Below, piece by piece: positions 15,567-63,813 of a DNA stretch of 64,000 bases. The DNA lies in contig JAWOLC010000052.1 in NCBI GenBank assembly GCA_033853925.1, positions 20 through 64,019 on the forward strand, read 5' to 3'. A model generated the notes under the pieces. The model was not told where the DNA came from and searched no databases. It saw only the letters and a program-made list of their open reading frames with translations. A program made the position numbers and the translations under genes. Every line of letters starts with the position of its first letter. The first letter of the stretch is position 1. The DNA is from Candidatus Eiseniibacteriota bacterium. GTDB taxonomy: Bacteria > Eisenbacteria > RBG-16-71-46.

Positions 15567-15653
15567 GGATCTCTCCGATGTCTCTCGGATGCCGCCATTC
15601 AGCGTACAGCCCGCTCGGGGATCGCGGGGCGAGAGCGGCAAAAGGAGCACCGT

Positions 15654-30330: not shown

Positions 30331-30622
30331 GGCCTGGCGCCCCGTGCGCCGCGGGCACGGAGATCGCTGCCGCAGCGACCTCGGCCGCGTGAGCCCGAAC
30401 GCCCTGCCTCGCCGCCACGAGGCGCGGCCCACCACTGCGAGACGCTGGGCTCGCGGGTTGCGCTTCGAGGCGACCGACATCCGGCTGGGGTAAGATATCG
30501 TCGTGCGTGACTGCGGGCCCGAGGCTCGGGGGATCGCCGTGCCTCACGCCCGGTTCCAGCGCTGGGCGCGCCTCTGGATCGTCCCGGCCGACCAGGGGGA
30601 GCGGAGGAGAGCGGAGAGGAAG

Positions 30623-50328: not shown

Positions 50329-52894
50329 GTGCCGCCTCCGCCGCCGCCACGCTCCCTCGCGGCGCCAGGAGCCGCAGGCTGCCCACGGCCCTCCCCGCGA
50401 AGTAGTCCTGGTCGAAGAAGTAGTCCGAGAGCCTGAAGTTCGCGAAGACCGGCGAGCGGATCATGCGCACGCGCACGACGTACTCGCCGGGAGCCACGTC
50501 CCTGGGCACCGCCACCGAGAACTCGTCACGCACGACCTGGTCGGGCCGCCAGAGATCCACCCCGTAGATCCCTCCCACGGGGAGATGGTCGTCCCGGAAG
50601 CGCAGGCGCTCGTGGAGCCGCCTCTCCAGCAGCTTCCGCCAGGGCTTCCCCAGGAACGCGGGAGGACTCCAGCCCGCGGGCAGGGGGCGGTCGAAGCGCA
50701 CGGCCACGGTGTAGGAGCCCGGCGGCATCGGCCCCGGCGCGCGCCAGTCCACGGCGCAGCGAAGCGTGTCGCCGGGCCGAGCCCGCTCGGGACGGAGCGC
50801 GAAGCCCACGATGGCCGGAAGAGCCGCGGAGCGAGACTCCGGCGCCAGCGCGTCTCCCGCCGTCACCGGCCGCACGAAGGGCCGCGGCGCCGGTGGACTG
50901 GCCAGCCGGTCCAGCCCGCGCGGGCGCACGCGGTAGACGACCACGCCGCGCAGGTCCGCCAGGCGCTCGAAGGCCCCGGGGGCCGAGTCCAGGCGCGCGC
51001 GCTCGGCGGCGTACCACGAGCGAGTCGGGGTCCAGTACAGGAGCGGGGCGGCATCGCCCAGCCGGCCGTCGAGCACGATCACGCTCACGCCGTACCGCCC
51101 GATCACGTCGCGCATCCGCGCCCACGGCTCGTAGGGGTCGAGCGCGTCGCGCGTGTCCAGGATCCGCCGCAGGGCCAGCGAGTCGTTCGGCGAGCTGTGC
51201 TGGTCCACGATGGCGACGACGTATCGCCCCGTCATCATGGGCACCATGTACGACGTGGCCAGGTCCGAGAGCACGACGTCGTCGGGCGGCAGGTGGGCGT
51301 TCATCCACGCGAAGACGTCCCCCCAGCGCCGGGGATCGTACTCGCGCCTGGCCTGCTGGAGCGGCTCGGGGGCCAGGAGCACCGTGGCCGCATCGCGCGC
51401 GGGCGCGGCGAGCAGCACCACCGCGAGCGCCAGCACCACGCCCGCCGCCGCGCGCCGCGCCCACGGGCCGGTCGCGGCCACGCGCGCGGCCAGCTCGGGC
51501 AGCAGCCAGCCGAGAATGCCCGCGAGGGGCACGAGCCAGATCAGCCGCATCAGCAGGTAGCCCAGGCGAGGCTGGAGCAGGGCGACGACCGGCGGGTCGT
51601 ACATGATCAGGCCCACGGCCAGGGAGGAGGTCAGCAGGTAGAGCACGGCGGGGTTGTGCCTCCCGCGCGCCCACAGCCATGGCCAGGCGAGCGGCACCAG
51701 CACCCAGGCCTCGCCCATGTGGGTCCAGAGCGCTCCGATCGTGACCACTCGCAGGGTTCCGACCAGGGTCAGCAGCCCCTGCGGCTCCGTATGGATGATG
51801 TTCGTGGGCGCGTACGCCTGTCCGGCGCGCATGACGACGTAGGGCAGGCATGCCGCGGCCATCAGCAGGACCGTGGGAACGAGCCGGCGCAGGTCGGGGC
51901 CGACCCGCCGGTCCCGCAGCAGGAGGCCGAGCGCGAGCGCCGAGAACACCACCGCGAAGTGAACGGCCGCGAACACGTGCGTCGCCACGGCCGCGAAGCC
52001 GAGGATCGCCGCCGAGACGCGCGTCCCGCGGGCGCGCATCCGGAGGTCTGCCAGGACCGCGACCACGGCCGCCAGCGCGAGCTGATCGCCGAAGTGGGAG
52101 GCGAAGGCCATCTGGCGCAGCTCCTCGGACCACAGGCCTCCGCCGAAGGTGAGGAGGAGCGCCCACGCGGCCAGTCCGGCGCCGATCGGCCCGCGGCAGA
52201 GGTACCCCAGCCCGGCCACGGTGAGCACGAAGAAGGGCACGATGAAGCTCCCGAGCCAACGCCAGGACTCGAGCGGGTCCACGGCCGCGAGCCGCGTGAT
52301 CAGCGCGATGACGACGTGCCAGACTCCCTTGCGCGGGTCGGCGCCCATGCGGCCCGCGTCACGGAAGAACGCGTCGGTGGGAAACGCCTGGCCGGTGAGC
52401 AGCATGCGCCGCAGCGTGCCCACGTGGTCGGGCGTGTCGGTGCCGTATCCCGTCGGCGGGCCGATGCTCCCCGCGGTCCAGGCCGCCACGCCCGCCGCCA
52501 GCAGCACGGCCAGCACGGCCCAGCGAGGCAGCGTGGGCGCCCCGTCCGGCCAGGGGACGCGCCCGCGCCAGACCACGACGCCCCAGAGCGCGGCGTTGGC
52601 CGGGAGCATCCAGAGCGTCAGGGGCAGGAAGCTCGGGACGAGCGTGTGCGCCAGCAAGGCCAGCGCCGAGGCCCAGGCCACCCCGAAGCCGAGCGCCCAG
52701 CCGGCGGCCAGCCAGGATCCTCCCGGCGGCCGGGCTCCCAGGGCGACGAAGGCCCAGCCGGGAACCAGGACGAGCACGCCGAAGGCCAGCGCCACCCGCA
52801 CGGGACCCGGCAGGGCGGCTCCCGCCCCCGCCAGCAGAGCGGCGTGGAACGCCAGGCTGGCGAGGCCAAGAGCCAGCGCTCGCGCTCGGGTCAT
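50315..52894 (-). CDS. Large polytopic membrane protein with C-terminal periplasmic domain (paralog C, distant from A/B)
   Basis: 860 aa from MTRARALALGLASLAF of ORF 50315..53053; DTPDHVGTLRRMLLTGQAFPTD aligns with the D-x-W-x-H-x-G...G-x-P-x-D motif of A/B; ATGA overlap with the upstream stop. Confidence 0.7.
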   Translation of the reverse strand: MTRARALALGLASLAFHAALLAGAGAALPGPVRVALAFGVLVLVPGWAFVALGARPPGGSWLAAGWALGFGVAWASALALLAHTLVPSFLPLTLWMLPANAALWGVVVWRGRVPWPDGAPTLPRWAVLAVLLAAGVAAWTAGSIGPPTGYGTDTPDHVGTLRRMLLTGQAFPTDAFFRDAGRMGADPRKGVWHVVIALITRLAAVDPLESWRWLGSFIVPFFVLTVAGLGYLCRGPIGAGLAAWALLLTFGGGLWSEELRQMAFASHFGDQLALAAVVAVLADLRMRARGTRVSAAILGFAAVATHVFAAVHFAVVFSALALGLLLRDRRVGPDLRRLVPTVLLMAAACLPYVVMRAGQAYAPTNIIHTEPQGLLTLVGTLRVVTIGALWTHMGEAWVLVPLAWPWLWARGRHNPAVLYLLTSSLAVGLIMYDPPVVALLQPRLGYLLMRLIWLVPLAGILGWLLPELAARVAATGPWARRAAAGVVLALAVVLLAAPARDAATVLLAPEPLQQARREYDPRRWGDVFAWMNAHLPPDDVVLSDLATSYMVPMMTGRYVVAIVDQHSSPNDSLALRRILDTRDALDPYEPWARMRDVIGRYGVSVIVLDGRLGDAAPLLYWTPTRSWYAAERARLDSAPGAFERLADLRGVVVYRVRPRGLDRLASPPAPRPFVRPVTAGDALAPESRSAALPAIVGFALRPERARPGDTLRCAVDWRAPGPMPPGSYTVAVRFDRPLPAGWSPPAFLGKPWRKLLERRLHERLRFRDDHLPVGGIYGVDLWRPDQVVRDEFSVAVPRDVAPGEYVVRVRMIRSPVFANFRLSDYFFDQDYFAGRAVGSLRLLAPRGSVAAAEAARVRD

Positions 52895-53622
52895 GCGCGG
52901 ATCTCCGGCGGCCGCGGCCGCACGGGAGCCGGAGGCTCGTCCGCCCCGCGGGGTCGAGCCTGGGCCAGCCACTGGAAGGCCATGAGGTCGGGAAGTGAGG
53001 CGCAGGCCAGCCGGTTCAGGGCCCGATCCATGGCCCCCAGGCGCAGCCGGCACAGGACGCGGTCGAGCCGGCAGGGCTGCAGGCTGAAGGTCAGCTCCAA
53101 GATGCGAAAGCCGCCACCCTCCAGCAGGGCCGAGAAGCTCCGCCGGGTGAAGAAGCGCAGGTGGGTCCGATCCAGGATGCCGTATTCCTCGTAGTCGAAG
53201 CGGCCGCGCAGCAGCGCCCGGCGAATCGTGTGATGCGCCACGTTGGGGATCGACACCAGCAGCCGTCCCTCCGGCGCCAAAGCCGCGCGACAGCGCGCCA
53301 GGACGGCTTCGGGCTCGCGCAGGTGCTCGAGCACGTCGGCGAGGATCGCCACGTCGAAGGGGGGCACGACGTCCGTCCAGAGCCGCTCGTCCTCCACGTC
53401 TCCCACGAGCACGGCTTCACAGAACGGCGCCGCGTGCGCGGCGGCGGTGGGGCTCCGCTCGACGCCCGTGACCCGGCAGGCTCGCCTCTCCCGCAGCACC
53501 CGGCTCATGTAGCCCGTGGCGCAGCCGATCTCGAGCACCCGCGTGCCCGCGGGCGTCCAGTCGACGAGCACGCGCTTGTTCGCCTCCAGCTCGTCGCGCC
53601 AGGGGTAGACCTTGTCTCTCAT
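52891..53622 (-). CDS. Class I SAM-dependent methyltransferase
   Basis: 243 aa from MRDKVYPW (AGGGAGG SD) of ORF 52891..53676; VLEIGCATGYM motif. Confidence 0.75.
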   Translation of the reverse strand: MRDKVYPWRDELEANKRVLVDWTPAGTRVLEIGCATGYMSRVLRERRACRVTGVERSPTAAAHAAPFCEAVLVGDVEDERLWTDVVPPFDVAILADVLEHLREPEAVLARCRAALAPEGRLLVSIPNVAHHTIRRALLRGRFDYEEYGILDRTHLRFFTRRSFSALLEGGGFRILELTFSLQPCRLDRVLCRLRLGAMDRALNRLACASLPDLMAFQWLAQARPRGADEPPAPVRPRPPEIRA

Positions 53623-54599
53623 GACGCCGCCGCCTCCCTGCCGCGCGCCTCGGGAGACACGAGCATCCGCAGGCATCTGCGCATCAGGCGAAGGACGTGC
53701 GCGGTCCGGGCCCGGCGGGGCGGGGCGAAGGGCGCCAGCAGCGCGTTGCGGAGGAGCGACAGCCCGAGGCTCGCCAGGAGCGCCAGCTTCAGCAGCGCAC
53801 CCGCCGGCCCCGTGAACGTCAGGTCCCAGAACACGCCGATCGAGCGCAGGCTGAGCAGGGAATTCGTCTCGACGTCCAGCTCACGGCTCGTGCCCCCCAG
53901 ATGCACCACCTCGGCCGCCGGCTCGTAGCGCAACGTGAGGCCATGACGCCGTGCGCGAAGGCTCCACTCCACGTCATCGTAGTTGAGCACCAGCCGCTCG
54001 TCGAGCAGCCCGACCCGGGCCAACGCCTCGCGGCGGAAGAGGATGCAGGCTCCCGACAGCACGTCCGGCACGCCCGGCTGCTCGTACCACCGCCGCGGGT
54101 AGGTGCCGCGCACGAAGGGGAGCAGGGCCGGCACCAGGGCGGGGAGCTGGGTGTGGCCGAGGAGCGAGGGCAGGAAGCGCGGCGCCCGGCGAGCGCAGAC
54201 CCACTGCGTGGAGCCGTCCGCGTGGAGGAGACGGGGGCCCACCGCTGCGGCCGACGGCTCGCCCTCCAGCCGGCGGACGAGCGCCCCGAGCGCGTCGCCG
54301 CGGAGCAGCGCGTCCGAGTTGAGCGCCAGCACGTAATGCCCGCGGGCCTCGCGGAGACCCTGGTTGCACGCGGGCGCGTAGCCGCGGTTCTCGCCGTTCA
54401 CGACGAGGCGCGCCGCGGGCCAGCGCTCCGCCACGCGCCGCGCCGAGCCATCGCTCGACGCGTTGTCGATCACGAGCAGCTCGCGCGCTATCTCCGGCGA
54501 GCTGGCGAGCGCGTCCTCCAGGCAGCGCACCAGCAGGTCGCGCGTGTTGAAGCTCACGACCACGATGCTGACGAGGGGCGCGCCGCTGGCCTCAGGCAT
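53619..54599 (-). CDS. Glycosyltransferase family 2
   Basis: ORF 53619..54599; VSIVVVSFNTRD, DNASSDGS and DxD region. Confidence 0.8.
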   Translation of the reverse strand: MPEASGAPLVSIVVVSFNTRDLLVRCLEDALASSPEIARELLVIDNASSDGSARRVAERWPAARLVVNGENRGYAPACNQGLREARGHYVLALNSDALLRGDALGALVRRLEGEPSAAAVGPRLLHADGSTQWVCARRAPRFLPSLLGHTQLPALVPALLPFVRGTYPRRWYEQPGVPDVLSGACILFRREALARVGLLDERLVLNYDDVEWSLRARRHGLTLRYEPAAEVVHLGGTSRELDVETNSLLSLRSIGVFWDLTFTGPAGALLKLALLASLGLSLLRNALLAPFAPPRRARTAHVLRLMRRCLRMLVSPEARGREAAAS

Positions 54600-56064
54600 C
54601 CGAGCCGCCTCCGGCGGGCTGCAGCCGCGCCAGCAGGACCTCGCGAATCCGCTCGATCTCGCGGCGGGTGATGGAGGTCAGCGCCCAGGCGAGGGCGATC
54701 GCGATGCCCACGAGGCGCAGGCGCAGATCGGGGAACGGCAGGGAGGCGACGGCCACGACCGCCACCGTGCTCGAGAGCAGCAGCCGCGTGTTCTCCGCCG
54801 TGAAGCGGAAGCCGTTCACCCGGCGCAGGTAGACCACCATCATGACGAAGGCCACCGCCCACGAGACCGTGTGCCCCCAGATGGCTCCCTGCAGGCGGGC
54901 CGCCGCCGGCACGCCGAAGAAGATCCCCGCGAACACCCCGTACTGGACGAGCGACATCACGTTGCGCGCGCGGAAGCGCTCCTGGGGAAGCATGGGGAGC
55001 TGGACCGCGAAGACCACGGCCTTGACGAGGTCGCCGACCATCTGCACGGGAAACAGCGCCGCCGCGTCCAGGAATCGGCTCGAGTACAGCACCCGGATCA
55101 TCACGTCCCGCGACAGGAGGAGCGCGAGGATGCCGGCCGTGGAGAAGAGGAGCGCCACGCGCGTAGCGTTGTTGACCTCCTGATTGATGGCCCCGAGCTC
55201 GCGGAGCTGGCTGATGCGGGGGAACGAGTACGCGGTCATCGCGTTCAGGGGAATGGCCAGGTACTGGGTGGAGACGGCGAAGAGCACCTGGTAGATCCCG
55301 TTCCGGGTCAGGCCCAGGTCGTGGACGATCTGGGCGCGCAGCACGAAGGGGAACATCAGGGTGAGGACGAACGGCGGCAGGTTCGCGTAGCCGAAGCGGA
55401 AGAGGCTGGTGATGGCCGGGCGGTCGAAGGGGGCTTCGTCCACGGCCCGCCTCATCTCGTGCCCCATCGCTCGGTCGGCGGTCCAGCGGGCGACGGCCCA
55501 GGCCAGGATGGCGAAGACGAAGAGGTGGATCGTGGCTCCCTTGAGCCCCCAGGCGAGCACCAGCGGAGCCAGAACGGCGAGCCCCAGCACCGAGGTCAGC
55601 ACCAGAGCCCGCGAGTAGGCGCGCATGTCGAGCCCGGCCTGCACGTAGGTCAGCCAGGTCTGGCTCTGCACCAGGAAGGGAATGCCCAGGATGGGCGGGA
55701 TGAGCAGGACCAGGTAGGCCGGCGAGTTCGTGGCCCACAGGGTGATCGGTCGGATGAAGAGCAGGCAGAGCGCCGTCGCCCCCACGGACAGCCACAGGAA
55801 GGTGCGTGCCGAGGTGGCCACGAAGCGGGCCTGCCGGTTCGGATCCCCGGTGCGATAGAGGGCGAAGTAGCGCAGCGCCCCGGTCTGCAGCCCGAGGGGC
55901 ACGATCCCGGCGGCCACGGTCTGCAAGCCGAAGAGCTGCGCGAACAGACCGATGCCCGTGGGCCCGAGGGTCACCGCCAGCAGCTTGTTGCGGAGAACCG
56001 ACACCCCCGTGTTCGCGACGGAGGAGAGGCCGATCAGGAAGACCGAGCGAACGAGCGCCCTCAT
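54592..56064 (-). CDS. Wzx-type flippase (polysaccharide biosynthesis protein, MOP superfamily)
   Basis: 490 aa from MRALVRSVFLIGLSSVANTG (GGGAGA SD) of ORF 54592..56241; about 12 transmembrane helices. Confidence 0.8.
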   Translation of the reverse strand: MRALVRSVFLIGLSSVANTGVSVLRNKLLAVTLGPTGIGLFAQLFGLQTVAAGIVPLGLQTGALRYFALYRTGDPNRQARFVATSARTFLWLSVGATALCLLFIRPITLWATNSPAYLVLLIPPILGIPFLVQSQTWLTYVQAGLDMRAYSRALVLTSVLGLAVLAPLVLAWGLKGATIHLFVFAILAWAVARWTADRAMGHEMRRAVDEAPFDRPAITSLFRFGYANLPPFVLTLMFPFVLRAQIVHDLGLTRNGIYQVLFAVSTQYLAIPLNAMTAYSFPRISQLRELGAINQEVNNATRVALLFSTAGILALLLSRDVMIRVLYSSRFLDAAALFPVQMVGDLVKAVVFAVQLPMLPQERFRARNVMSLVQYGVFAGIFFGVPAAARLQGAIWGHTVSWAVAFVMMVVYLRRVNGFRFTAENTRLLLSSTVAVVAVASLPFPDLRLRLVGIAIALAWALTSITRREIERIREVLLARLQPAGGGSDA

Positions 56065-57533
56065 GCCGTCTCCCGGGGCGCCGTCCACAGCGTGGCGACC
56101 TTGTCCAGGCCGGCGCCGCGGCCCAGCCAGGCCAGCACGGGGAGCGCCAGCAGGATCACTGCGGCCGACCGGACCAGAGCCGCCAGCACCGGCCGCGGCG
56201 GCCCCAGCTCGCAGGCCACGAACGCCGCCGCGCCGAGCCACAGCGTGGGCAGGAAGCTCGAGGCGGCGAAGGACAGGCGCGCGCGCGGCGCCGCATGGAG
56301 GTCACGCGCCGCGAGCGCCACGATGACCACCGCGAACAGTCCGTAGCCCGCGCAGGCCGCGGCGGCGACCGGGAAGGGCCGGGGCGCGCGCGCGGCCACG
56401 CCGAACACGACGGCGGCGGCGAGGGCGGCGCACAGGACGCCGGCCGCGAGCAGGGCGCGGGCGTGTCCCCGCCCCAGCAGCCAGTAGCCCGGCAGCGTGG
56501 CCGCCGAGAGCAGCAGGGCGGCCATCGCCAGCAGCCGGACGGACCTCGCGGCCGTCACGAACTGCGGCAGGAACAGCTCCAGCACGGGCGTCACCCAGAT
56601 CATGGACACCGCCACGGCCACGGGCAGCAGCAGGGACAGGGTCCGTTGCGCGCGCGTCACCTCGTGCCGGGTCCGCTCCAGATCGCGAGCCCCGTCCGCG
56701 GCCGCCACGATGCGGGGATAGAGGACCGCCGCCGCGGCCTCGGGCAGGTAGAACACGAGCCCCGCCGCCATGAGGCCCACGCTGTAGGCACCCAGGTCTT
56801 CCGGATGGCCGAAGCGGATGAGGGCGAGCCGATCCACGGAGCGGAGGACGAGCGACACCCCGTAGAAGGCGAACACCACGAATCCCCCGCGCACCAGCGC
56901 CCGCGAGCGGGCCAGCGCGCCGAGCCGGAAGGGCACGTCGGGGGCCGCGCGGCGCACCCAGACCAGGGCCACGGCCGTGCCCGCGAGCCAGCCCCACAAG
57001 AGCCCCGGGATCCCGAAGCGGTGCACGAGCGCGATCCCCAGCGCCCCTCCCACCAGGACCTGGGCGGCGGTCGAGCCGCTGACCGCATCGAATCGGCCGC
57101 GCGCGCGCAGGACCGAGCCGACGTACTGCAGCACGAGCTGGAGGAGCCCGGCTGCGAGCATGAGGAGCGGCGCCTGCCAGCCGAGCCCGCGCAGGATCCG
57201 GGGGTGCCCGTTCGCCAGCATGACGATCACGGCGAGCGCGAAGAGGGCCCCACCCCCCACCACCATGTTCCAGGTCCCCGCCAGGAGCCGCCGCGATTCC
57301 TGGGCCTCACCTCGCGCGCTGGTCGCGGGCAGGCGGAGATCCAGCCCCTGCAGGGCCCCGCAGGGAGCGTACGCGCTGTAGTCCAGGATCAGGTTCAGCG
57401 CGTTCCAGCTCCCGAAGCCCGCGGGTCCGAGCGTGGCCGCCGCCACCACACCCCGAGCGAGCAGCATCGCCCGCGAGACGTACTGGCTCGCGGCCAGCCC
57501 CAGCATGTCGCGGACGAAACGGCGCCCCGTCAC
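56061..57533 (-). CDS. MOP-superfamily polysaccharide flippase (Wzx-like), second copy
   Basis: ORF 56061..57533; about 12-14 transmembrane helices; ATGA overlap with the downstream gene. Confidence 0.7.
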   Translation of the reverse strand: MTGRRFVRDMLGLAASQYVSRAMLLARGVVAAATLGPAGFGSWNALNLILDYSAYAPCGALQGLDLRLPATSARGEAQESRRLLAGTWNMVVGGGALFALAVIVMLANGHPRILRGLGWQAPLLMLAAGLLQLVLQYVGSVLRARGRFDAVSGSTAAQVLVGGALGIALVHRFGIPGLLWGWLAGTAVALVWVRRAAPDVPFRLGALARSRALVRGGFVVFAFYGVSLVLRSVDRLALIRFGHPEDLGAYSVGLMAAGLVFYLPEAAAAVLYPRIVAAADGARDLERTRHEVTRAQRTLSLLLPVAVAVSMIWVTPVLELFLPQFVTAARSVRLLAMAALLLSAATLPGYWLLGRGHARALLAAGVLCAALAAAVVFGVAARAPRPFPVAAAACAGYGLFAVVIVALAARDLHAAPRARLSFAASSFLPTLWLGAAAFVACELGPPRPVLAALVRSAAVILLALPVLAWLGRGAGLDKVATLWTAPRETA

Positions 57534-57661
57534 GGCCCGGCCGCCCGCGGCCGCTGGAGCCCGAGGCGCACGTGTCCTAGAATCCGACGACCGATGCGCC
57601 CTCTCGTCTCGAACGCGGCCTGCCGGTCCTGCCGGGCTTCCGGACGCCGCCCACCGCGCCC

Positions 57662-58867
57662 GTGAGCGCTCCGCCCGCTCCTCTTGCCTCCCGCGGCGGC
57701 GCTCCCGTGCGCTCCGCCTTCCTGCCCTTCTCGCGTCCCTCGATCGGCCCGCGGGAGAAGGAGCGCGCGCTCGAAGCGCTGGACTCCGGCTGGATCACGA
57801 CCGGACCCCTGGCTCAGGAGCTGGGGCGCCGCGTGGCGGCGCTCGCGGGCGCGCGCCACGGCTTGGCGGTCAACTCGGCCACGGGCGCCCTGCATCTCGC
57901 GCTCCTCGGGCTGGGGGTGGGGCCGGGGGACGAAGTCGTGACCTCGGCCTACACGTTCGTGGCCTGCGCGAACGTCATCGAGCACGTCGGCGCGCGCGTG
58001 GTCCTGGCCGACGTCGAGGCGGACACGCTCTGCATGGACCCGCGCTCGCTGGAGCGGGCGCTGGGTCCGCGCACCCGGGCGATCCTGCCGGTGGACTACG
58101 CCGGCCATCCCTGCGACCTCGAGGCCATCGGGGCCCTGGCGCGCGCCCGCGGCCTGCCCGTGATCGAGGACGCGGCGCACTCGCTGGGGGCGGCGATCGG
58201 AGAGCGTCCCGTGGGCTCCTTCTCCACGGTGACCGCCTTCTCCTTCTACGCCACGAAGAACGTCACCACCGGCGAGGGCGGGGCCGCCGTCACCGACGAC
58301 GAGGCCCTGGCCGAGCGCATGGAGCAGTACGCCCTGCACGGCATGAACCGCGACGCCTGGCGGCGCTACTCGGACACCGGCTCCTGGTACTACGAGGTCA
58401 CGACGCCGGGGTTCAAGTACAACCTGAGCGACGTGCTCGCGGCTGTCGGCCTGGCCCAGCTCGAGCGCTTCGCGGACATGCAGCGCCGGCGCCGCGAGCT
58501 GGTGGCGCGCTACGACGACGCCCTGGCGGGAATCCCCGAGGTGCGCCGGCCGCGCTCGCGCCCCGGGGTGGTGCACGCCCATCACCTGTACCCCATCGCC
58601 CTGGAGCTGGACCGCCTGAGCTGCGACCGCGCCCGCTTCATCGAGGAGCTGCGGGCGGAGAACATCGGCGCCTCCGTTCACTTCATCCCCATCCACTTCC
58701 ATCCCTACTTCCGCGACCGCCTCGGGCTCGGAGCCGGCGCGTTCCCGGTCGCCGAGGAAGCCTACCGGCGCGCGGTCACCCTGCCGCTCTTCCCCGACAT
58801 GTCGGCGCAGGACGTCGCCGACGTGGCGAGCGCCGTGGGCAAGATCGTCGCCCACTACCGCCGCTAG
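57662..58867 (+). CDS. ArnB-like sugar aminotransferase (DegT/DnrJ/EryC1 family), second copy
   Basis: ORF 57662..58867; FLPFSRPSIG...ALDSGWITTGP and FSFYATKNVTTGEGG closely match ArnB; an alternative GTG start at 57707 gives M-RSAFLPFSRP. Confidence 0.85.
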   Translation: MSAPPAPLASRGGAPVRSAFLPFSRPSIGPREKERALEALDSGWITTGPLAQELGRRVAALAGARHGLAVNSATGALHLALLGLGVGPGDEVVTSAYTFVACANVIEHVGARVVLADVEADTLCMDPRSLERALGPRTRAILPVDYAGHPCDLEAIGALARARGLPVIEDAAHSLGAAIGERPVGSFSTVTAFSFYATKNVTTGEGGAAVTDDEALAERMEQYALHGMNRDAWRRYSDTGSWYYEVTTPGFKYNLSDVLAAVGLAQLERFADMQRRRRELVARYDDALAGIPEVRRPRSRPGVVHAHHLYPIALELDRLSCDRARFIEELRAENIGASVHFIPIHFHPYFRDRLGLGAGAFPVAEEAYRRAVTLPLFPDMSAQDVADVASAVGKIVAHYRR

Positions 58868-58974
58868 CTCTCGGCCCGCCTCCTCGCCCACCGGGCCGCG
58901 CCCGACAGGACCCTTCCCCGTTCCTCCCGCTTCCGGGCCGAGCCCCGGCCGCAGGCGCGCGGGCGCGCGAGCCT

Positions 58975-59982
58975 TCACGTGGTCACCTCCTGCGCCCGGT
59001 TGAGCGAGGCCAGGGAGAGGCCCTCGCGCCGGAGGTAGTAGAGGCCCACGACCGTGACCGGCAGCCACTGCGCGGCCCAGTAGAACCACGAGAAGGAGCT
59101 GGCCACGTCGCGGCTGCGGAAGCCGAACAGCGTCAGGCCCATGACGCACGCGGCGTTCATGGTGCCCACGTAGCCCGGCGCGGCGGGGGCCATGATGGCG
59201 ATGGCGGTGATCACGAGCAGGGTGAAGCCGGCGTACCAGGGCAGGTGGATGCTCAGGGCCTCGAGGCTCCACTGCAGGGCGACGCCGAAGCAGCCGAACA
59301 TGATGAAGGAGAGCAGGAAGACCCAGAGCAGGCGGGGCACGTCGCGGAAGAGGCTCAGGCCCTCCATGAAATGGTCCAGCATGACCTCGAGCTTGGTCCG
59401 GTAGCGCACGGGGAGCCAGCGCACGAGGGCGTGGACCAGGCGGCGCGCGGCCGTGGGCGTGCGCTCGAGCAGGACGAGCACCAGCGTGAGCAGGATGGTC
59501 AGGAGGATGAGGGCGATGGCTCCGCCGCGGATGCTCCGGCCGGCCTCGCTGTGGGCCTCGATGGGGTGCACGAGGAGCGTGAGGGCCAGGATCCCCAGCA
59601 GGGTCAGCATGTCCACGGCGCGCTCGACGACCACCGTCGCCAGCACCATGGTCCCCGAGCACTTCTCGCGGCGGGCGAGGGCCCAGGCCCGCACGAACTC
59701 GCCGAGCCGCAGAGGCAGGACGTTGTTGGCCATGAAGCCGATCATGGTGGCGCTGAACAGGCTGTCCAGGCTGGCCTGGCGGGGCGCGGCCAGGAGCGAA
59801 CGCCAGCGCAGGGCCCGCAGCCAGAAGGAGAACAGGGTGAGCCCCATGACCCCGGCGAAGAGCAGCAGATTGGACTGGCGCAGCGCCTCGATCACGCGGG
59901 GAAGGCTCACGCCCCGCATGGAGTACCAGATGGCGACGATGGAGATCGCCAGGCCCAGAGCGAAGTGCAGCCCGCGCTTCAT
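58975..59982 (-). CDS. UPF0104/flippase-like integral membrane protein (lysyl-PG-synthase TM-domain-like)
   Basis: 335 aa from MKRGLHFALGLAISIVAIWY of ORF 58975..60429; 8 transmembrane helices. Confidence 0.7.
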   Translation of the reverse strand: MKRGLHFALGLAISIVAIWYSMRGVSLPRVIEALRQSNLLLFAGVMGLTLFSFWLRALRWRSLLAAPRQASLDSLFSATMIGFMANNVLPLRLGEFVRAWALARREKCSGTMVLATVVVERAVDMLTLLGILALTLLVHPIEAHSEAGRSIRGGAIALILLTILLTLVLVLLERTPTAARRLVHALVRWLPVRYRTKLEVMLDHFMEGLSLFRDVPRLLWVFLLSFIMFGCFGVALQWSLEALSIHLPWYAGFTLLVITAIAIMAPAAPGYVGTMNAACVMGLTLFGFRSRDVASSFSWFYWAAQWLPVTVVGLYYLRREGLSLASLNRAQEVTT

Positions 59983-60368
59983 CCGCGCTCCGCGGGGGCG
60001 CCCGCCGGCCCGCCCCCCCGCCGGAGATCCTCGAGCTCGCTGCGCAGCAGGGCCAGCTCCCGCGTCAGCGCGTGGTTGTCCTGTCCCAGCCGGGACAGCT
60101 TGACGGAGAGATGGAGCAGCATGGCCAGGCTGAAGCCGATGCCGAAGGCGAAGACCGTGGAGCTCGCGCCCATCATGCCCAGCGCGCGCGTGATCCAGGT
60201 GAGCAGCGGCGTCGAGAAGCCCAGCGTGGCCACGAGCACGGTGCAGATGACCCACAGGAGCGAGTACTCCTCCGAGAGCTTGCGGCGGCGCACGAGGTCC
60301 AGCACGTACAGCACGAGCAGGACCGCGCCGATCGCCATGATGACCTGGGTTCTCGAGAGAAACGTCAT
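59979..60368 (-). CDS. DUF2304-family small membrane protein
   Basis: ORF 59979..60368; three transmembrane helices and a C-terminal amphipathic helix. Confidence 0.65.
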   Translation of the reverse strand: MTFLSRTQVIMAIGAVLLVLYVLDLVRRRKLSEEYSLLWVICTVLVATLGFSTPLLTWITRALGMMGASSTVFAFGIGFSLAMLLHLSVKLSRLGQDNHALTRELALLRSELEDLRRGGGPAGAPAERG

Positions 60369-60377
60369 GGAGGCTCC

Positions 60378-61088
60378 TCAGAGCTGGGCCGGCCGCTTCA
60401 GCAGCGCCATCAGCGAGGCCAGCAGACACTTGTAGGGGTAGTACAGCGATCGCCCGAGCGTGTAGAAGGATCGTCCCGCCCGCCGCTCACGCATCTCGAC
60501 CGGCACCTCCTCGAAGCGGAATCCGCGGCGGCCCAGGGTAATGAGGAGCGGGGCGTCGGGGAAGTCCCTCGGGAAGTCCTGCTGGCACACCTCCATGACC
60601 GCCCGGGAATAGGCGCGAAAGCCGGAGGTCGTGTCGGTGATCCGCCGTCGGAGCACGGCGCTCACGAGGTGGGAGAAGAGCACCATGCCGAGCCGGCGCG
60701 CGACCGGGGCGCGGTAGCCCGTGCGCCGCAGGTAGCGGGAGCCGATGCTCACGTCACAGCGGCCGGCGGCCAGCGGCTCGACCAGGGCGCCGAGGAAGGC
60801 CGGGTCGTGCTGCCCGTCCGCGTCGAGCTGGACCCCCACGTCGTAGCCGTGCTCCACGGCCCAGCGGAAGCCGGACTGCAGGGCCCCGCCCACCCCCAGG
60901 TTGACGGCGTGCCGCAGGACGGGCGCACCGCGCTCGCGCGCGACCCGCGCCGTGGCGTCACGCGAGCCGTCGTCCACCACGAGCGCGTCCATCTGGGGCG
61001 CGAGCGCGTGCAGCTCGGCGAGCGTGGCCGGCAGGCTCTCCTGCTCGTTCAGCGCGGGAATGATCACCAGCACGCGGGGAGCGCTCAC
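60378..61088 (-). CDS. GtrB/DPM1-like polyprenyl-phosphate glycosyltransferase (GT2)
   Basis: ORF 60378..61088; VLVIIPALNEQ, VDDGSRD and DADGQH motifs. Confidence 0.85.
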   Translation of the reverse strand: MSAPRVLVIIPALNEQESLPATLAELHALAPQMDALVVDDGSRDATARVARERGAPVLRHAVNLGVGGALQSGFRWAVEHGYDVGVQLDADGQHDPAFLGALVEPLAAGRCDVSIGSRYLRRTGYRAPVARRLGMVLFSHLVSAVLRRRITDTTSGFRAYSRAVMEVCQQDFPRDFPDAPLLITLGRRGFRFEEVPVEMRERRAGRSFYTLGRSLYYPYKCLLASLMALLKRPAQL

Positions 61089-62671
61089 GAGGGTCTCCGC
61101 GACTCGGCCAGGCGGGCGAAGAAGCCCAGGAACCAGACGAGGCTGCCGCGCACGAAGCGGGTCCAGGCGGCCTCGAGCGGCACCTCCTCCAGCTTCTCCA
61201 GGTCCTGGCGCCGCACCAACCCGAAGGCGAACAGGCCCACCGCCGCGGGGAAGAGCAGGACGACATGGAAGGCGAAGAGGGCGAAGACGTGCCCGCGCAG
61301 GCTCCAGTCGACGAGCAGCGTGATCCCGACCAGGGGCAGCACCAGCCCCAGGGTCGTCAGCGTCGCCCGCGACCGCTCGCGCGCCTCCTCCGGCAGCAGG
61401 CGGGTGCCCACGAAGAGCGCGGCCGCGTAGGACACGACCGCGCCCACCAGGTTGGACCAGGCCGCGCCGATGACGCCCAGGGTGGTCACCAACAGGAAGT
61501 AGGCCCCGAACTCGCCCACGAACTTCACGACCGCCAGGACCAGCTCGATGCCGGGGCGACCCAGGGCCCGGAACAGCATGGTGAAGGGCTGCTGGGCGGT
61601 GCGGGCGAGCGGAACCAGCGCGAGGACGCGCAGCAGCGGCACCGCGGGCAGGAAGAGTCGGCTGCCGAGCACCCGGGTCAGCTCGCGGGCGAACACGAAC
61701 AGGCCCAGCGAGACGACGAAGGCCAGCGCCTGGACCAGGCGGTGCGCCTGCGAGAACGCCAGGCGCAGCCGCACCCGCTCACCCCGAGCCACGAGCCAGG
61801 TGAGCGAGGGCAGCAGCGCGGAGGGGATGGCGTTCACGAACTCGCTGAAGCGCTCGACGGTCTGGTAGGCGAAGGTGAAGTACCCCAGCAGGGTCGTGTC
61901 GAACAGGCCGCCCACGATGATCTTGCTGAGGTTCTGCCCCGAGGTGAAGGCGATGCGCCCTCCGAGCAGCGGGAGGCAGTAGGCGAACATGCCGCGGAGC
62001 AGGCCGCCCCAGGTACGCTCGGGCGCCGGCGCCTCCCGCTCCTCCGGCTGCCGCAGGATCCAGAAGCAGACCGCGGTCTGCATCAGGCCCAGGCTCACCG
62101 AGAGCCCCGCGAAGCCCACGGCCAGAGGCACCAGGCCTTGCCGGCTCCACCACAGCGCCCCCACCAGGACGGTCTTGGCCACATGGAACACCACGGCCAG
62201 GACCGAGACCCAGCGGAATTGCTGGAGGCCGAAGAGCGTGGAGCGACTCGTCGTCGCCAGGCCGTCGAAGGCCACGGTGACCACGAGGATCGGCACGAGC
62301 ACGCGCAGCTCGGGAGTCTCCCAGCGCCCGGCCAGCCAGGGGAGGATCGCCAGCAGCACCGCGCTGGCCAGCAGGCCCAGCGAGACCTTGACCGCGAGCG
62401 CCAGCACGTGGGCGCGGCGGAGGGTCACGCCCAGCCGGCGTGCCTCGTACTCGGCGGCGTAGCGCTCGAGATACATCTCGAAGTTGCCCGTCGCCGTCGC
62501 CGCCATCCCGGTGAAGGCGAGGGCCAGGGTCATGATGCCCAGCTTGGTGGGCCCCAGCCAGCGCATCAGCAGCAACGTGTAGGCGACACCGGAGAAGATC
62601 GCGGCCGCCTTCTCGACGGCCAGCCAGAACGCGCCGCGCGAGACGCTGTGCGCGATGCCGCGGGGGTTCAT
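61085..62671 (-). CDS. Wzx-type flippase (MOP superfamily), third copy
   Basis: 528 aa from MNPRGIAHSVSRGAFWLAVEKAA of ORF 61085..62998. Confidence 0.75.
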   Translation of the reverse strand: MNPRGIAHSVSRGAFWLAVEKAAAIFSGVAYTLLLMRWLGPTKLGIMTLALAFTGMAATATGNFEMYLERYAAEYEARRLGVTLRRAHVLALAVKVSLGLLASAVLLAILPWLAGRWETPELRVLVPILVVTVAFDGLATTSRSTLFGLQQFRWVSVLAVVFHVAKTVLVGALWWSRQGLVPLAVGFAGLSVSLGLMQTAVCFWILRQPEEREAPAPERTWGGLLRGMFAYCLPLLGGRIAFTSGQNLSKIIVGGLFDTTLLGYFTFAYQTVERFSEFVNAIPSALLPSLTWLVARGERVRLRLAFSQAHRLVQALAFVVSLGLFVFARELTRVLGSRLFLPAVPLLRVLALVPLARTAQQPFTMLFRALGRPGIELVLAVVKFVGEFGAYFLLVTTLGVIGAAWSNLVGAVVSYAAALFVGTRLLPEEARERSRATLTTLGLVLPLVGITLLVDWSLRGHVFALFAFHVVLLFPAAVGLFAFGLVRRQDLEKLEEVPLEAAWTRFVRGSLVWFLGFFARLAESRRPS

Positions 62672-63813
62672 CGGCCCAGCTCCGCCAGCTCGCCTTCGAG
62701 GTAGCCGCGCACGTCCTTGAGGTGGCGCAGCGCCTCGGGCAGGGGGCGGTTGGCGAAGAGCAGCGCCGCCATGTCCGCGTGCCTCGGGTCGTAGCCGTGC
62801 ATGGCCGCCAGCGGGCGCGAGCCCATGAACGAGGGCACCATCAGCACGCCCGGATCGAGCAGGAAGATGTCGTCCCCGTAATCCCGCCCGGGGAACAGCG
62901 CCCCTTCCCGCTCCAGCTCGGCATCCGTGAGCCAGTGGCCGCCGGGCTGCGCGCCCAGGGCCGCGCGCACCTCCGCCCGCGCCCCGTCCGACCGCCACCA
63001 GAAGCGCGCCAGGGTGGAGTCGAAGAAGGGGACGAAGTCACGCGGCCACCGGCAGGAGCATCTCGCCACCACGCCCATCAGGTCGACGCTGCGGCCAACC
63101 CTCACCATCCCGTGGTCGGAGAGCAGCACGAGCCGAAGGTCCTCCCCGCGCCGCTCCGCCGCCCGGACGACGCGTCCGAGCCAGGCGTCGTAGAGTGCGA
63201 GCCGCTCCCGGGCCCCGGGGCCGTCGGGGCCCTCCTGATGCAGCACGGCGTCGAGCTTGCCAGTGTAGCAGAAGAGGAAATCCTCCGGCCCGCTCTCGAG
63301 GGCTCGCTCCACCGCCGCCAGGCTCTCCGACTCCGGCATTCGCCAGCTCCAGCCCTGCCAGAGGAGGCCGAGGCGCTCCGGCGCGCTCCACAGGCTGTCG
63401 CCGGGCAGGCCGTGGGCCGCGAAGACGTCCTCGCGCTCGGCCAGGTCGAATTCCTCGAGCAGCTCGCGCGGCACCTCGTAGAGGCTGAAGTAGCCACGCA
63501 CCCCGCGCGCCACCACGAGCCGCGTGAGCAGCACCGAGAGCTTCCAGCTCCGGCGCAGGCGAGGCGGCAGCCAAGCGAGCCGGCGGAAGCCGCGGAAGGG
63601 CGTTCCGGCGCCGGTGGCCCGGCGGTACATGAGCCAGCGCCCGTGCTCGTGCGGCAGCCGGCCGGTGAACAGGGTCGGCAGCGCGCCGGCGCTGAAGCCG
63701 AGGATCGTCTCCAGCCGGCGCCGATGCGGCAGCATGCCGGCGAAGCCGGGCGAGCGGCACGCCAGCTCCCAGCCCAGGGCATCCACGAGCAGGACCACCA
63801 GCCGTCGTCTCAC
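62668..63813 (-). CDS. Alkaline-phosphatase-superfamily metalloenzyme (type I phosphodiesterase/nucleotide pyrophosphatase-like)
   Basis: From GTG 63813 (M-RRRLVVLLVDALGWE) behind a GAGGAG SD in ORF 62668..63978; metal-ligand region SDHGM. Confidence 0.7.
   Translation of the reverse strand: MRRRLVVLLVDALGWELACRSPGFAGMLPHRRRLETILGFSAGALPTLFTGRLPHEHGRWLMYRRATGAGTPFRGFRRLAWLPPRLRRSWKLSVLLTRLVVARGVRGYFSLYEVPRELLEEFDLAEREDVFAAHGLPGDSLWSAPERLGLLWQGWSWRMPESESLAAVERALESGPEDFLFCYTGKLDAVLHQEGPDGPGARERLALYDAWLGRVVRAAERRGEDLRLVLLSDHGMVRVGRSVDLMGVVARCSCRWPRDFVPFFDSTLARFWWRSDGARAEVRAALGAQPGGHWLTDAELEREGALFPGRDYGDDIFLLDPGVLMVPSFMGSRPLAAMHGYDPRHADMAALLFANRPLPEALRHLKDVRGYLEGELAELGR

Follow-up and report, generated by a model that had tools for sequence, protein, structure and literature searches.

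The window analysed here is a 64-kb stretch of DNA from an uncultured soil bacterium. Its nearest genomes are MAGs of Candidatus Eisenbacteria, a lineage that, following established taxonomy, we take to belong to the FCB group. The window covers most of a large, hypervariable surface-polysaccharide locus of ~14.5-64 kb (Table 1). Three flippase genes of the MOP superfamily, termed A, B and C, lie within 8 kb, all on the minus strand. The G+C content of the window is ~73% and spurious ORFs are therefore common (111 ORFs of >=100 aa overlap the 30-64 kb interval). The coding signature of A, B and C is strong, with a GC3 of 0.94-0.96 versus a GC2 of 0.46-0.55. Profile scans of every window ORF found exactly these three MOP genes and no fourth one. 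The first-pass annotation had placed three Wzx-type genes and one Wzy_C gene at this locus, and our analysis recovered all four at exactly these coordinates.

Table 1. Genes of the 64-kb window considered in this study (sequence positions within the window).
Gene or product	Position	Strand	Basis or remark
PMT_2 (GT-C fold) membrane glycosyltransferase	26160..27695	-	PF13231 34.2 bits
Priming polyprenyl-phosphate glycosyl-1-phosphate transferase, sole one detected in window	27805..28719	-	Bac_transf 214 bits
Short GT2, polyprenyl-phosphate-hexose synthase class	29656..30330	+	Dol-P-hexose transferase 116 bits, AglJ 115 bits
PMT_2 (GT-C fold) membrane glycosyltransferase	30503..32092	+	PF13231 44.7 bits
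ArnC/GtrB-type GT2, two C-terminal TM helices	33529..34506	+	ArnC 155 bits, PgfS 140 bits, full length
Wzy_C-family polymerase or ligase, 482 aa, ~11 TM	35604..37052	+	PF04932 48.5 bits, cutoff 31.7
Short GT2, polyprenyl-phosphate-sugar synthase class	37034..37699	-	AglJ 112 bits, ArnC 70 bits
X676, polytopic membrane protein, ~13 TM, paralog of X685	39543..41573	+	41% identity over 650 aa
Polysaccharide deacetylase with DUF3473 domain	41570..42433	+	PF01522 75 bits, PF11959 98 bits
X685, polytopic membrane protein, ~13 TM	42604..44661	+	DUF6541 1.1e-4, below cutoff
GT4 glycosyltransferase, last gene of B-A operon	47303..48412	-	Glycos_transf_1, Glyco_trans_1_4
AsnB-type amidotransferase (PEP-CTERM EPS-locus type)	48409..50328	-	Asn_synthase 329 bits
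X859, polytopic, ~13 TM and soluble C-terminal domain of ~360 aa	50315..52894	-	hydropathy
MT, SAM methyltransferase of the A cassette	52891..53622	-	Methyltransf_23 88 bits
GT2a, conventional GT2 glycosyltransferase, travels with A	53619..54599	-	Glycos_transf_2 84 bits
A, WzxE-like PST flippase, 490 aa	54592..56064	-	variable slot after B
B, orphan-clade MOP flippase, 490 aa, ~14 TM	56061..57533	-	Polysacc_synt_3
DegT-family sugar aminotransferase (PseC/ArnB-like), divergent from B	57707..58867	+	PF01041 399 bits
LPG_synthase_TM, standalone MprF-flippase-like membrane protein, 335 aa	58975..59982	-	PF03706 167 bits
DUF2304 small membrane protein (GacJ/Rv3632 family), 119 aa	59979..60338	-	PF10066 76.9 bits, cutoff 25.5
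GT2p, soluble GT2, polyprenyl-phosphate-sugar synthase class (GacI/PpgS-like), 236 aa	60378..61088	-	Glycos_transf_2 82 bits
C, PST/MOP flippase, WzxC-like, 528 aa	61085..62671	-	Polysacc_synt
Phosphodiest-family protein, last of Wza/Wzc-like block, directly upstream of C	62668..63786	-	PF01663 54.6 bits

A, B and C are intact PST/Wzx-type genes and anciently diverged deep paralogs. Each is full length and has many full-length orthologs of 45-80% identity. According to BLASTP, A and B share 28% identity over 325 aa (E = 3e-4), while the similarity of A to C and of B to C is not significant, and the earlier description of the three as "copies" is therefore wrong. An NJ tree built from 90 MOP ORFs of related loci separated clades A, B, C and a sister clade of B (B2), each containing orthologs from many loci.

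A is regarded as WzxE-like because its ortholog profile matches E. coli WzxE (117 bits; 99.4% over 388 columns with hhalign). The protein itself has no Pfam match; it hits NCBIfam WzxE at 2.2e-25, below the cutoff, and the solved WzxE structure PDB 9g95 at 1.2e-11 over residues 6-406. Close homologs of A number only ~37. C is regarded as WzxC-like because its ortholog profile matches E. coli WzxC (E = 1.8e-10, 345 aligned columns), and it also matches Pfam Polysacc_synt (71 bits, cutoff 28) and Polysacc_synt_3 (57 bits) and NCBIfam PRK10459 (2e-13). B belongs to a lineage-specific orphan clade, and its profile yielded nothing significant against five E. coli MOP proteins. Its AlphaFold (AF2) model predicts a MOP fold with confidence (pLDDT 89.6, pTM 0.86), and we count B as a Wzx on account of this fold and a marginal Pfam score (Polysacc_synt_3, 26.2 bits, cutoff 23).

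The MOP fold alone cannot separate Wzx, MurJ and MATE proteins. The top Foldseek match of the B model was WzxE (2.4e-7, 18% identity), an alignment with MurJ spanned ~515 columns, and the E-values of Wzx, MurJ and MATE matches were alike. Some C orthologs furthermore carry secondary MurJ or MatE matches in precomputed Pfam. At least one of the three might on these grounds be a MATE efflux pump, the lipid II flippase MurJ or a decaying pseudogene; the first-pass annotation had named two pseudogenes or MATE drug-efflux clades as outcomes that would overturn its reading. Neither was found, however: no Pfam MatE or MurJ match exists in A, B or C of the window, the profiles of A, B, B2 and C all miss E. 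coli MurJ and MdtK, and the three conserved genes are embedded among glycan genes, to which they are translationally coupled. We consider such an identity very unlikely and largely refuted.

We compared the window with ~80 related loci, mostly Candidatus Eisenbacteria-like metagenome contigs, and according to this comparison its "one locus" is a composite of modules. Within the window, overlaps of 4-8 nt join Phosphodiest-C-GT2p, DUF2304-LPG_synthase_TM and B-A-GT2a-MT-X859-AsnB-GT4. The start of C overlaps the Phosphodiest stop and its stop the GT2p start by 4 nt each. Wherever a related locus has room for it, the Phosphodiest gene lies upstream of C, and the genes before it in relatives are Poly_export, one that is Wzz-like and one that is ParA/AAA_31-like, giving the block order Wza, Wzz-like, kinase-like, unknown, Phosphodiest and C. 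C is gained or lost together with this Wza/Wzc-like block. Loci L083 and L015, for example, have a common left flank (Peptidase_M16, aminotransferase, DUF3108 and a ~318-aa product), and the block from Poly_export through Phosphodiest and C is present in L083 and missing from L015. C was found in 17 of the 22 B-anchored loci with sufficient upstream sequence, and two C-anchored loci were inspected. As the contig ends at ~64 kb, the window itself contains no Wza or Wzc gene, and synteny predicts their presence in this genome. The most likely substrate of C, we posit, is the undecaprenyl-diphosphate-linked repeat unit of an exopolysaccharide that is exported through Wza/Wzc; the lone Bac_transf enzyme would prime this unit and the Wzy_C protein would polymerise it.

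B and C flank a synthase pair of the GacI/GacJ type. The best NCBIfam matches of GT2p, which has no TM helix, are PpgS (1.8e-27), AglJ, Dol-P-hexose transferase and ArnC, all under their equivalog cutoffs; with 96 bits against a cutoff of 370, the similarity to PpgS is at class level only. GacI and PpgS are activated by the DUF2304 proteins GacJ and Rv3632, respectively (bioRxiv 10.1101/180810). The LPG_synthase_TM gene overlaps the DUF2304 gene by 4 nt and, in practically every related locus, comes immediately downstream of GT2p-DUF2304; its product matches TIGR00374 "flippase-like domain" with 81.8 bits (cutoff 43). The DegT protein scores 378 bits against PseC and 372 bits against ArnB, both under cutoff, and its gene is separated from B by a divergent intergenic region of 173 bp. 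Since the loci were gathered by anchoring on B, the linkage counts of B are conditional on its presence: 22/22 loci have DUF2304, 18/18 have GT2p and practically all have LPG_synthase_TM. This linkage also holds in compact loci without C, A and DegT.

By analogy with GacI-GacJ-GacK-GacL, GT2p and its DUF2304 activator would make a polyprenyl-phosphate-(amino)sugar in the cytoplasm, which would be flipped, and the sugar would then be moved onto a periplasmic glycan. At least one substrate of the three flippases is probably a lipid-linked monosaccharide for periplasmic decoration, and B is the best candidate for flipping that of GT2p. The gene context agrees with the first-pass suggestion of a monosaccharide flippase alongside GtrB-type synthases. 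C could equally take this role, as C and not B is translationally coupled to GT2p and as the M. tuberculosis order Rv3630-ppgS-Rv3632, by locus-tag numbering, resembles C-GT2p-DUF2304. Alternatively, the MprF-flippase-like protein may translocate the GT2p product, with B flipping a small conserved glycan.

The slot between B and X859 is variable. It holds A in the window and in L002, L016 and L003, B2 in 12 loci, and is empty in ~25 loci. The start of A forms an ATGA overlap with the stop of B. GT2a (NCBIfam matches PgaC, rhamnosyltransferase and EpsD-like) follows 3' of A wherever the contig reaches far enough (L002, L003, L007 and L009), and the methyltransferase after A-GT2a recurs in L002. 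More distant A-type genes are the sole MOP gene found on the GT4-bearing contigs L004 and L008, the former of which also carries Wzy_C and Bac_transf. In extended loci X859 lies directly 3' of B, or of B and the slot gene, and the GT4 gene after AsnB is kept in relatives. We posit that a second oligosaccharide unit, or a modified one, built with the extra transferase GT2a is the most likely substrate of A. A distinct unit for A is consistent with the preference of Wzx proteins for their cognate unit.

The changing content of the slot could also reflect a partly redundant, serotype-like replacement, in which B, B2 and A would be interchangeable for variants of one repeat unit and the tandem B-A would be a snapshot of a replacement under way rather than two working pathways. 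B2 occurs without B in L066, L072 and L083. In two loci the B gene carries frameshifts, namely L003 (beside an intact A) and L064 (beside an intact B2), and in L026 a short remnant resembling B2 separates B from X859. The B2-only and frameshifted-B loci suggest a functional overlap of B with B2 and perhaps also with A. The frameshifts of L003, however, also strike the neighbouring LPG_synthase_TM and DegT genes and could be long-read errors. Moreover, the window, L002, L013, L045 and ~10 other loci carry both genes of the tandem in an intact and translationally coupled state, and the divergence of A from B and the maintenance of clades A, B and B2 across many loci argue against interchangeability. 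We regard replacement as improbable.

The remaining gene content points to a demand for several flippases, as the window encodes four synthase-class GT2 enzymes, two PMT_2 GT-C proteins and three further large polytopic proteins, and the ORFs scanned include no flippase of the GtrA or ArnE/F type. The ArnC/GtrB-type GT2 sits in a group of DegT, GT2, PglD-like and PMT_2 genes, and the PMT_2 protein encoded next to the priming transferase reaches 54 bits against Agl23-like, under the cutoff. X859 is a candidate GT-C transferase or polymerase. It matches nothing in Pfam or NCBIfam itself, 3 of 14 orthologs match DUF6541 (best 2e-12), and its single-sequence model has a pLDDT of 40, so that the fold is not set by the model. 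X676 adjoins the deacetylase gene in L013 as well.

Our overall reading is that three ancient paralogous flippases each sit in their own module with their own lipid-linked substrate, and we give it an even chance of being correct in full. That A, B and C flip three different lipid-linked substrates is most likely, and the first-pass proposal of several distinct substrates is accordingly supported by the three deep clades and their different partner genes. What is observed here is that the genes are intact, to which families and folds they belong, how deeply they diverge, and how synteny and the presence or absence of modules vary; the substrates, in contrast, are all inferred from gene context. 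A rather unlikely alternative is that of three separate Wzx/Wzy polymers, such as an EPS, an O-antigen-like glycan and one more, with A, B and C all flipping undecaprenyl-diphosphate-linked repeat units and the monosaccharides of the GtrB/PpgS-class GT2 enzymes being flipped by the MprF-flippase-like protein or an unrecognised factor. All three flippases are indeed of the PST type, X859, X676 and X685 could be unrecognised polymerases, and compact loci have B as their sole MOP gene, in a small cluster with GT2 and GT4 genes and a 568-aa unannotated protein. The LPG_synthase_TM protein, which always adjoins GT2p-DUF2304, passes the TIGR00374 cutoff, but we found no literature report in which polyprenyl-linked sugars are flipped by an MprF-like domain. 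That just a single priming phosphoglycosyl transferase and a single Wzy_C protein were detectable in the 64 kb speaks against three polymers, as does the published precedent of a Wzx-type flippase in GacI/GacJ-type systems, where a GT-A enzyme, a TM partner, a Wzx-type flippase and a GT-C enzyme act together (PMC8035078).

Loci with three flippases occur in at least six relatives. As the arrangement recurs in this way and resembles known multi-pathway loci, we consider it real but fairly ordinary. Several markers of PEP-CTERM/exosortase EPS loci are approached in the window, namely FemAB (TIGR03019, 230 of 260 bits), the AsnB-type amidotransferase (TIGR03108, 564 of 817 bits) and the priming transferase (EPS_sugtrans, 280 of 296 bits), together with the Polysacc_deac_1 and DUF3473 deacetylase. 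TIGR03019, TIGR03108, EPS_sugtrans and DUF3473 are markers tied to exosortase loci. Unlike in such loci, all three scored markers remain under their curated cutoffs, and no exosortase was detected in the window.

The PpgS-Rv3632-Rv3779 pathway for arabinogalactan GalN of M. tuberculosis and Corynebacterium resembles the window in its synthase, PpgS being the best NCBIfam match of GT2p (well under the equivalog cutoff), in the DUF2304 partner and in a deacetylase, which is required there and encoded here. Its acceptor glycan is entirely different, and its flippase has not yet been identified. A MATE/MOP-like fold is described for Rv3630 (PMC8562490), the neighbour of ppgS (Rv3631) in locus-tag order, and this arrangement would mirror C-GT2p-DUF2304, with adjacency judged by locus-tag number and likeness by fold.

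Two systems come closest, and the window locus is a variation on them. In E. coli K-12 the cps (colanic acid) and rfb (O-antigen) clusters are adjacent, each with its own polymerase, and WzxC and RfbX lie ~9 kb apart in one 37-kb super-locus, a layout that would also suit three separate polymers. The ECA flippase WzxE is encoded elsewhere in E. coli. As in cps-rfb, each flippase lies among its own glycosyltransferases, and WzxC is tied to Wza-Wzb-Wzc export as the WzxC-like C is to its block, with A being WzxE-like. Unlike in E. coli, the window has three flippases in 8 kb, B and A are translationally coupled in a single operon, one Wzy_C and one priming transferase are seen, and B is without a counterpart. 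The GacI-GacJ-GacK-GacL system of Streptococcus pyogenes, the Wzx-type variant of multi-component transmembrane glycosylation, likewise combines a soluble polyprenyl-phosphate-sugar GT2 and a DUF2304 membrane partner with an adjacent Wzx-family flippase (GacK, likened by family and not by sequence) and a large polytopic membrane protein, X859 being only a candidate GT-C in comparison with GacL. In contrast to this Gram-positive organism, relatives of the window's host carry a Wza (Poly_export) gene, and the window module is flanked by two MOP genes, B and C, and adds an MprF-flippase-like protein, linked without exception, and in most cases a DegT aminotransferase.

The three flippase genes A, B and C encode PST (Wzx) family members of the MOP superfamily, for which glycan translocation is predicted. 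Genes were called by codon-position GC in a window whose G+C content of about 73% gives rise to many long spurious ORFs (30-64 kb of the window overlaps with 111 ORFs that are 100 aa or longer). A, B and C display a strong coding signature (GC3 0.94-0.96, GC2 0.46-0.55), and ORF calling reproduced exactly the coordinates that the first-pass annotation had given for them and for the Wzy_C gene (see table). C is firmly PST according to Pfam (Polysacc_synt 71 bits, cutoff 28; Polysacc_synt_3 57 bits, cutoff 23), and its fold assignment is based on these matches and on approximately 11-14 hydrophobic segments. B matched Polysacc_synt_3 marginally (26.2 bits, cutoff 23) and A matched none of the Pfam PST models. 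Despite this, A is the best anchored of the three: it matched NCBIfam WzxE (2e-25) and the solved lipid III flippase WzxE (9g95; 1.2e-11, residues 6-406, collinear over about 400 residues), and a profile of A orthologs matched Escherichia coli WzxE with 117 bits and an hhalign probability of 99.4% over 388 columns. PDB sequence searches with B and C, both as single sequences and as profiles, returned nothing relevant. Because no solved structure matched B in sequence, B was modelled (AF2) from a 36-sequence alignment. The all-helical model (pLDDT 89.6, pTM 0.86) had WzxE as its top Foldseek hit (E = 2.4e-7, 18% identity, TM-score 0.69-0.72), followed by MurJ, whose alignment over about 515 columns implies some 14 TM helices, and then by MATE pumps at 12-15% identity. 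B is therefore placed in the MOP superfamily by structure prediction, with TM-scores of 0.6-0.72 against WzxE, MurJ and MATE, and its predicted similarity to MATE is at fold level that common to the entire superfamily.

Profile scans of every window ORF identified exactly A, B and C as MOP genes and no MurJ-like or MdtK-like gene. No PF03023 (MurJ) match at E < 0.01 was found for A, B or C, and the profiles of A, B, C and B2 (a sister clade of B absent from the window) scored at most 0 bits against E. coli MurJ (E of at least 0.079); some C orthologs carry precomputed MurJ matches, as secondary matches only. PF01554 (MATE) likewise gave no match for A, B or C, and the profiles were not significant against E. 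coli MdtK. The first-pass annotation had raised the possibility that two of the three genes are pseudogenes or belong to MATE efflux clades; neither is the case, the three genes being intact and the MatE and MdtK comparisons negative. Non-flippase readings, which the fold shared with MATE pumps might invite, are very improbable in our view, as A, B and C are embedded among glycosyltransferase, polymerase and priming-enzyme genes and show translational coupling to GT2 genes.

The three genes had also been described as copies, which they are not. Over 325 residues A is 28% identical to B (BLASTP, E = 3e-4), A/C and B/C similarity was not significant by BLASTP, and hhalign among the three profiles gave only weak, low-probability alignments, owing to the narrowness of the profiles (Neff about 2.5). 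A neighbour-joining tree built on 90 MOP ORFs of related loci separates four deep clades (A, B, B2 and C), each with orthologs from many loci. A recent duplication of a single wzx gene is excluded by the pairwise identities together with this tree. When compared with five E. coli K-12 MOP proteins, the A profile paired with WzxE and the C profile with WzxC (28.6 bits, E = 1.8e-10; hhalign over 345 columns), and the B and B2 profiles had no partner in this set.

Positions of the features discussed, in the window unless a related locus is named
Feature	Position	Strand	Description
Right-hand anchor	12964-18862	-	ManC - SPOR-domain - NTP_transf_4 - GalT-like - glycogen-synthase-like
Right-hand anchor, L015	16895-21467		same gene order
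EPS_sugtrans	27805-28719	-	280/296, near cutoff
Further synthase-class GT2 genes	29656, 33529, 37034		polyprenyl-phosphate-sugar synthase class
Arn-like group	30503-35152	+	PMT_2 (GT-C) - DegT (DesI/PseC-like) - ArnC/PgfS-like GT2 - NeuD/PglD-family acetyltransferase
Wzy_C protein	35604-37052	+	Wzy_C 48.5 bits
FemAB	38043-39008	+	230/260, near cutoff
X676	39543-41573	+	polytopic membrane protein
DUF3473 deacetylase	41570-42433	+	
X685	42604-44661	+	polytopic membrane protein
S9 prolyl-oligopeptidase and MGMT-like DNA-binding-domain gene	44668-47258	-	
Amidotransferase	48409-50328	-	564/817, near cutoff
X859	50315-52894	-	polytopic membrane protein
A	54592-56064	-	PST flippase, WzxE-like
B	56061-57533	-	MOP flippase, orphan clade
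LPG_synthase_TM	58975-59982	-	standalone MprF-flippase-like protein
C	61085-62671	-	PST flippase, WzxC-like
Window end past Phosphodiest	63787-64000		214 bp
Frameshifted B, L003	6000-10100		intact A next
Frameshifted B, L064	790-2203		intact B2 next
B2-profile fragment, L026	1551-1667		46 bits

From about 14.5 kb to the window end almost all genes are glycan-related, and the core of a Wzx/Wzy pathway is all there, with a priming phosphoglycosyl transferase, Wzy and the three PST genes. The flippase genes lie in two minus-strand operons with overlaps of 4-8 nt. The first reads Phosphodiest (PF01663) - C - GT2p - DUF2304 - LPG_synthase_TM, GT2p being a soluble GT2 of the polyprenyl-phosphate-sugar synthase class; the second reads B - A - GT2a (a conventional GT2) - methyltransferase - X859 - AsnB-like - GT4. 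Between them lies a divergently transcribed PseC/ArnB-like DegT aminotransferase. Synthase-class GT2 genes occur at three further places, and the ArnC/PgfS-like GT2 of the Arn-like group has two C-terminal TM helices. No dedicated small flippase was found near this group, and no GtrA or ArnE/F flippase among the ORFs scanned in the window. Other genes of the locus encode a FemAB-like protein, a hexapeptide transferase, a DUF3473 deacetylase, a UDP-glucose dehydrogenase and five more glycosyltransferases; PMT_2 (GT-C) proteins number two, and a second DegT and a PglD-like acetyltransferase are also encoded. Overall, the synthase-class GT2 genes number four and the GT-C proteins at least two, alongside only one Bac_transf (214 bits) and one Wzy_C; by these counts, lipid-linked monosaccharide donors in need of translocation outnumber oligosaccharide pathways. 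Three separate oligosaccharide pathways, with which the PST type of all three flippases would agree, seem rather unlikely to us in view of these counts.

Three proteins of the locus scored slightly below the cutoffs of PEP-CTERM/exosortase EPS-locus families (FemAB, amidotransferase and EPS_sugtrans), and the DUF3473 deacetylase is present beside these markers; we take all four families to be those of PEP-CTERM/exosortase-associated EPS loci. No exosortase was detected in the window. The glycan locus is also broken into by the S9 prolyl-oligopeptidase and the MGMT-like gene; an S9 homolog follows X859 in one related locus (L027) too, so the association may be non-accidental.

GT2p comprises 236 aa and has no TM helix, as is the case for GacI. 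Its best NCBIfam matches were PpgS (96 bits, 1.8e-27), AglJ, dolichyl-phosphate hexose transferase and ArnC, all polyprenyl-monophosphate-sugar synthases, in class-level matches below the equivalog cutoffs. Immediately downstream follows the DUF2304 gene (PF10066, 76.9 bits, cutoff 25.5) and then LPG_synthase_TM (TIGR00374, 81.8 bits, cutoff 43), which was always found directly after the GT2-DUF2304 pair (L002, L013-L015, L082, L083 and most of L016-L081). A full-text search found no papers tying LPG_synthase_TM, PF03706, DUF6541 or TIGR00374 to glycan pathways. Two Wzx-type genes are near GT2p: C overlaps it by 4 nt, and B, which is linked to it in all related loci, is found three genes further downstream.

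X859 combines about 13 TM helices with a soluble domain of about 360 aa, and such a layout, with about 13 TM helices and a large soluble domain, is typical of GT-C enzymes. It had no family match and no PDB match in a profile search, its orthologs matched only DUF6541 in Pfam (3 of 14), and the pLDDT of its single-sequence model (40) was too low for a fold assignment. An Asp-rich loop, SDxPDHxGTxRRM (residues ~152-164), is invariant. Two further proteins, X676 and X685, are paralogs with 41% identity; all three are polytopic with about 13 TM helices each and lack a firm family, X685 and some X859 orthologs touching DUF6541.

In order to place the three genes in context, about 80 related loci were compared, anchored on A, on B (including a metagenome scan, 66 loci) and on C, and annotated with the window proteins and clade profiles; sampling was largely B-anchored. 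Candidatus Eisenbacteria MAGs, whose A orthologs are 71-72% identical, are the closest genomes, and an actinobacterial origin, as the G+C content of about 73% might suggest, was rejected on this ground. The extended locus reads Poly_export (Wza) - Wzz-like - ParA/AAA_31-like - unknown - Phosphodiest - C - GT2p - DUF2304 - LPG_synthase_TM - DegT (opposite strand) - B - variable slot - X859, followed by AsnB and GT4 in L002, L003 and L013 and by an epimerase and GT4s in L014. True B orthologs are preceded by DUF2304 in 22 of 22 loci, by GT2p in 18 of 18 and by LPG_synthase_TM in essentially all, and this linkage is kept in compact loci without C, A, DegT and the Wza block (L015, L037, L049, L060). 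C was present in 17 of the 22 B-anchored loci having at least 5.5 kb of upstream sequence. L083 and L015 have a common left flank (Peptidase_M16 - aminotransferase - DUF3108 - ~318 aa), and L083 has the Wza-to-C block between this flank and GT2p, a block that L015 lacks; C and the export machinery therefore travel together. The A protein has an exact match on a contig of 64,019 bp, of which the window covers practically everything. The window ends shortly past Phosphodiest, so that the Wza, Wzz-like and kinase-like genes lie outside it; in syntenic relatives Poly_export, Wzz-like and ParA/AAA_31-like genes are located directly upstream of Phosphodiest-C, and their counterparts are expected beyond 64 kb. 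On the other side, glycan genes between the conserved right-hand anchor and B span about 39 kb in the window vs about 5 kb in L015. This is how a hypervariable polysaccharide island flanked by conserved anchors behaves.

The slot between B and X859 is occupied by A in the window, L002 and L016, and also in L003, where B is fragmented; by B2 in 12 loci and also in L064, where B is again fragmented; and it is empty in about 25 loci. Wherever the contig extends, A is followed by GT2a (L002, L003, L007, L009). In L004 and L008, contigs that carry GT4 genes, a more distant A-type gene (45-51% identity) was the sole MOP gene found; L004 additionally carries Wzy_C, methyltransferase, AsnB and Bac_transf. 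Three MOP genes occur together in the window, L002, L003, L013, L016, L045 and L047. Serotype-like replacement of one flippase by another might fit the variable occupancy of the slot, but we consider it quite unlikely. In L003 and L064 the frameshifted B stands next to an intact MOP gene, and in L003 the neighbouring LPG_synthase_TM and DegT genes carry one frameshift each. As protein identity is still 57-94%, these frameshifts would stem either from decay in the very recent past or from errors in long-read assembly. A B2 fragment between intact B and X859 in L026 may be the remnant of a deleted B2 gene. Loci with B2 only, together with frameshifted B beside intact A or B2, hint at overlapping function.

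Taking gene linkage as a guide, we posit that C, WzxC-like and tied to Wza/Wzc, would flip the undecaprenyl-diphosphate-linked repeat unit of an exported EPS. B, which is linked to GT2p, DUF2304, LPG_synthase_TM and DegT and followed by X859, would flip a polyprenyl-phosphate-(amino)sugar that serves periplasmic decoration, on the pattern of GacIJKL, and A, WzxE-like and accompanied by a GT2 and here a methyltransferase, would flip a second or modified oligosaccharide unit. We hold this assignment as a whole with roughly even confidence; the translational coupling of C, and not B, to GT2p speaks against it. Alternatively, B may act on a glycan that is small and conserved, and the monosaccharide would then be flipped by the MprF-like protein. 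The GT2 (PpgS/GacI-like), DUF2304 and MprF-flippase-like proteins could further form a self-contained unit that makes and flips the polyprenyl-phosphate-(amino)sugar, B then flipping another substrate; the three genes are consistently adjacent, B is linked to them as well, and we judge this version unlikely. If true, the MprF flippase domain family (LPG_synthase_TM/TIGR00374) would gain a role in lipid-linked-sugar translocation, and candidates for the flippase of the mycobacterial PpgS pathway would follow.

Several Wzx flippases per genome, even in adjacent clusters, are well known, and the count of three is therefore not surprising. The novelty lies in the lineage, in the orphan clade formed by B and B2, in the tandem of coupled MOP genes within one operon and in the MprF-like protein that invariably partners the GT2/DUF2304 pair. 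The locus also gives a first account of the genetics of envelope glycans in Candidatus Eisenbacteria-like bacteria; no papers were found in a full-text search for 'Eisenbacteria' with 'exopolysaccharide'. One conserved backbone with one, two or three MOP flippases provides a natural set for flippase-substrate pairing, and B stands for an orphan MOP clade which is well conserved and can be recognised chiefly from its fold. The GacI/GacJ-type pair is always accompanied by MOP and MprF-flippase-like proteins, which offers concrete monosaccharide-flippase candidates bearing on polyprenyl-phosphate-monosaccharide flipping in several systems, the PpgS pathway of mycobacteria among them.

Among known systems, the neighbouring cps and rfb clusters of E. 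coli K-12 contain two Wzx genes separated by 9 kb. The DUF2304 proteins GacJ (Streptococcus pyogenes) and Rv3632 (Mycobacterium tuberculosis) activate the GT2 enzymes GacI and PpgS, and the Wzx-family protein GacK is the proposed flippase of GlcNAc-P-undecaprenol, from which the sugar is transferred by GacL, a GT-C enzyme (bioRxiv 10.1101/180810; PMC8035078). In GacIJKL a Wzx-type protein would thus serve a lipid-linked monosaccharide; GacK is likened to the window flippases by description, and the window module differs in the addition of a standalone MprF-flippase-like protein. The flippase of the PpgS pathway is described as 'as yet unidentified' (PMC9671496). Rv3630, annotated as a drug pump, has a MATE/MOP-like fold (PMC8562490) and adjoins ppgS (Rv3631) by locus-tag numbering. 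The order Rv3630-ppgS-Rv3632, again by locus tag, would mirror C-GT2p-DUF2304 of the window, and this synteny points to Rv3630 as a possible flippase for the product of PpgS.
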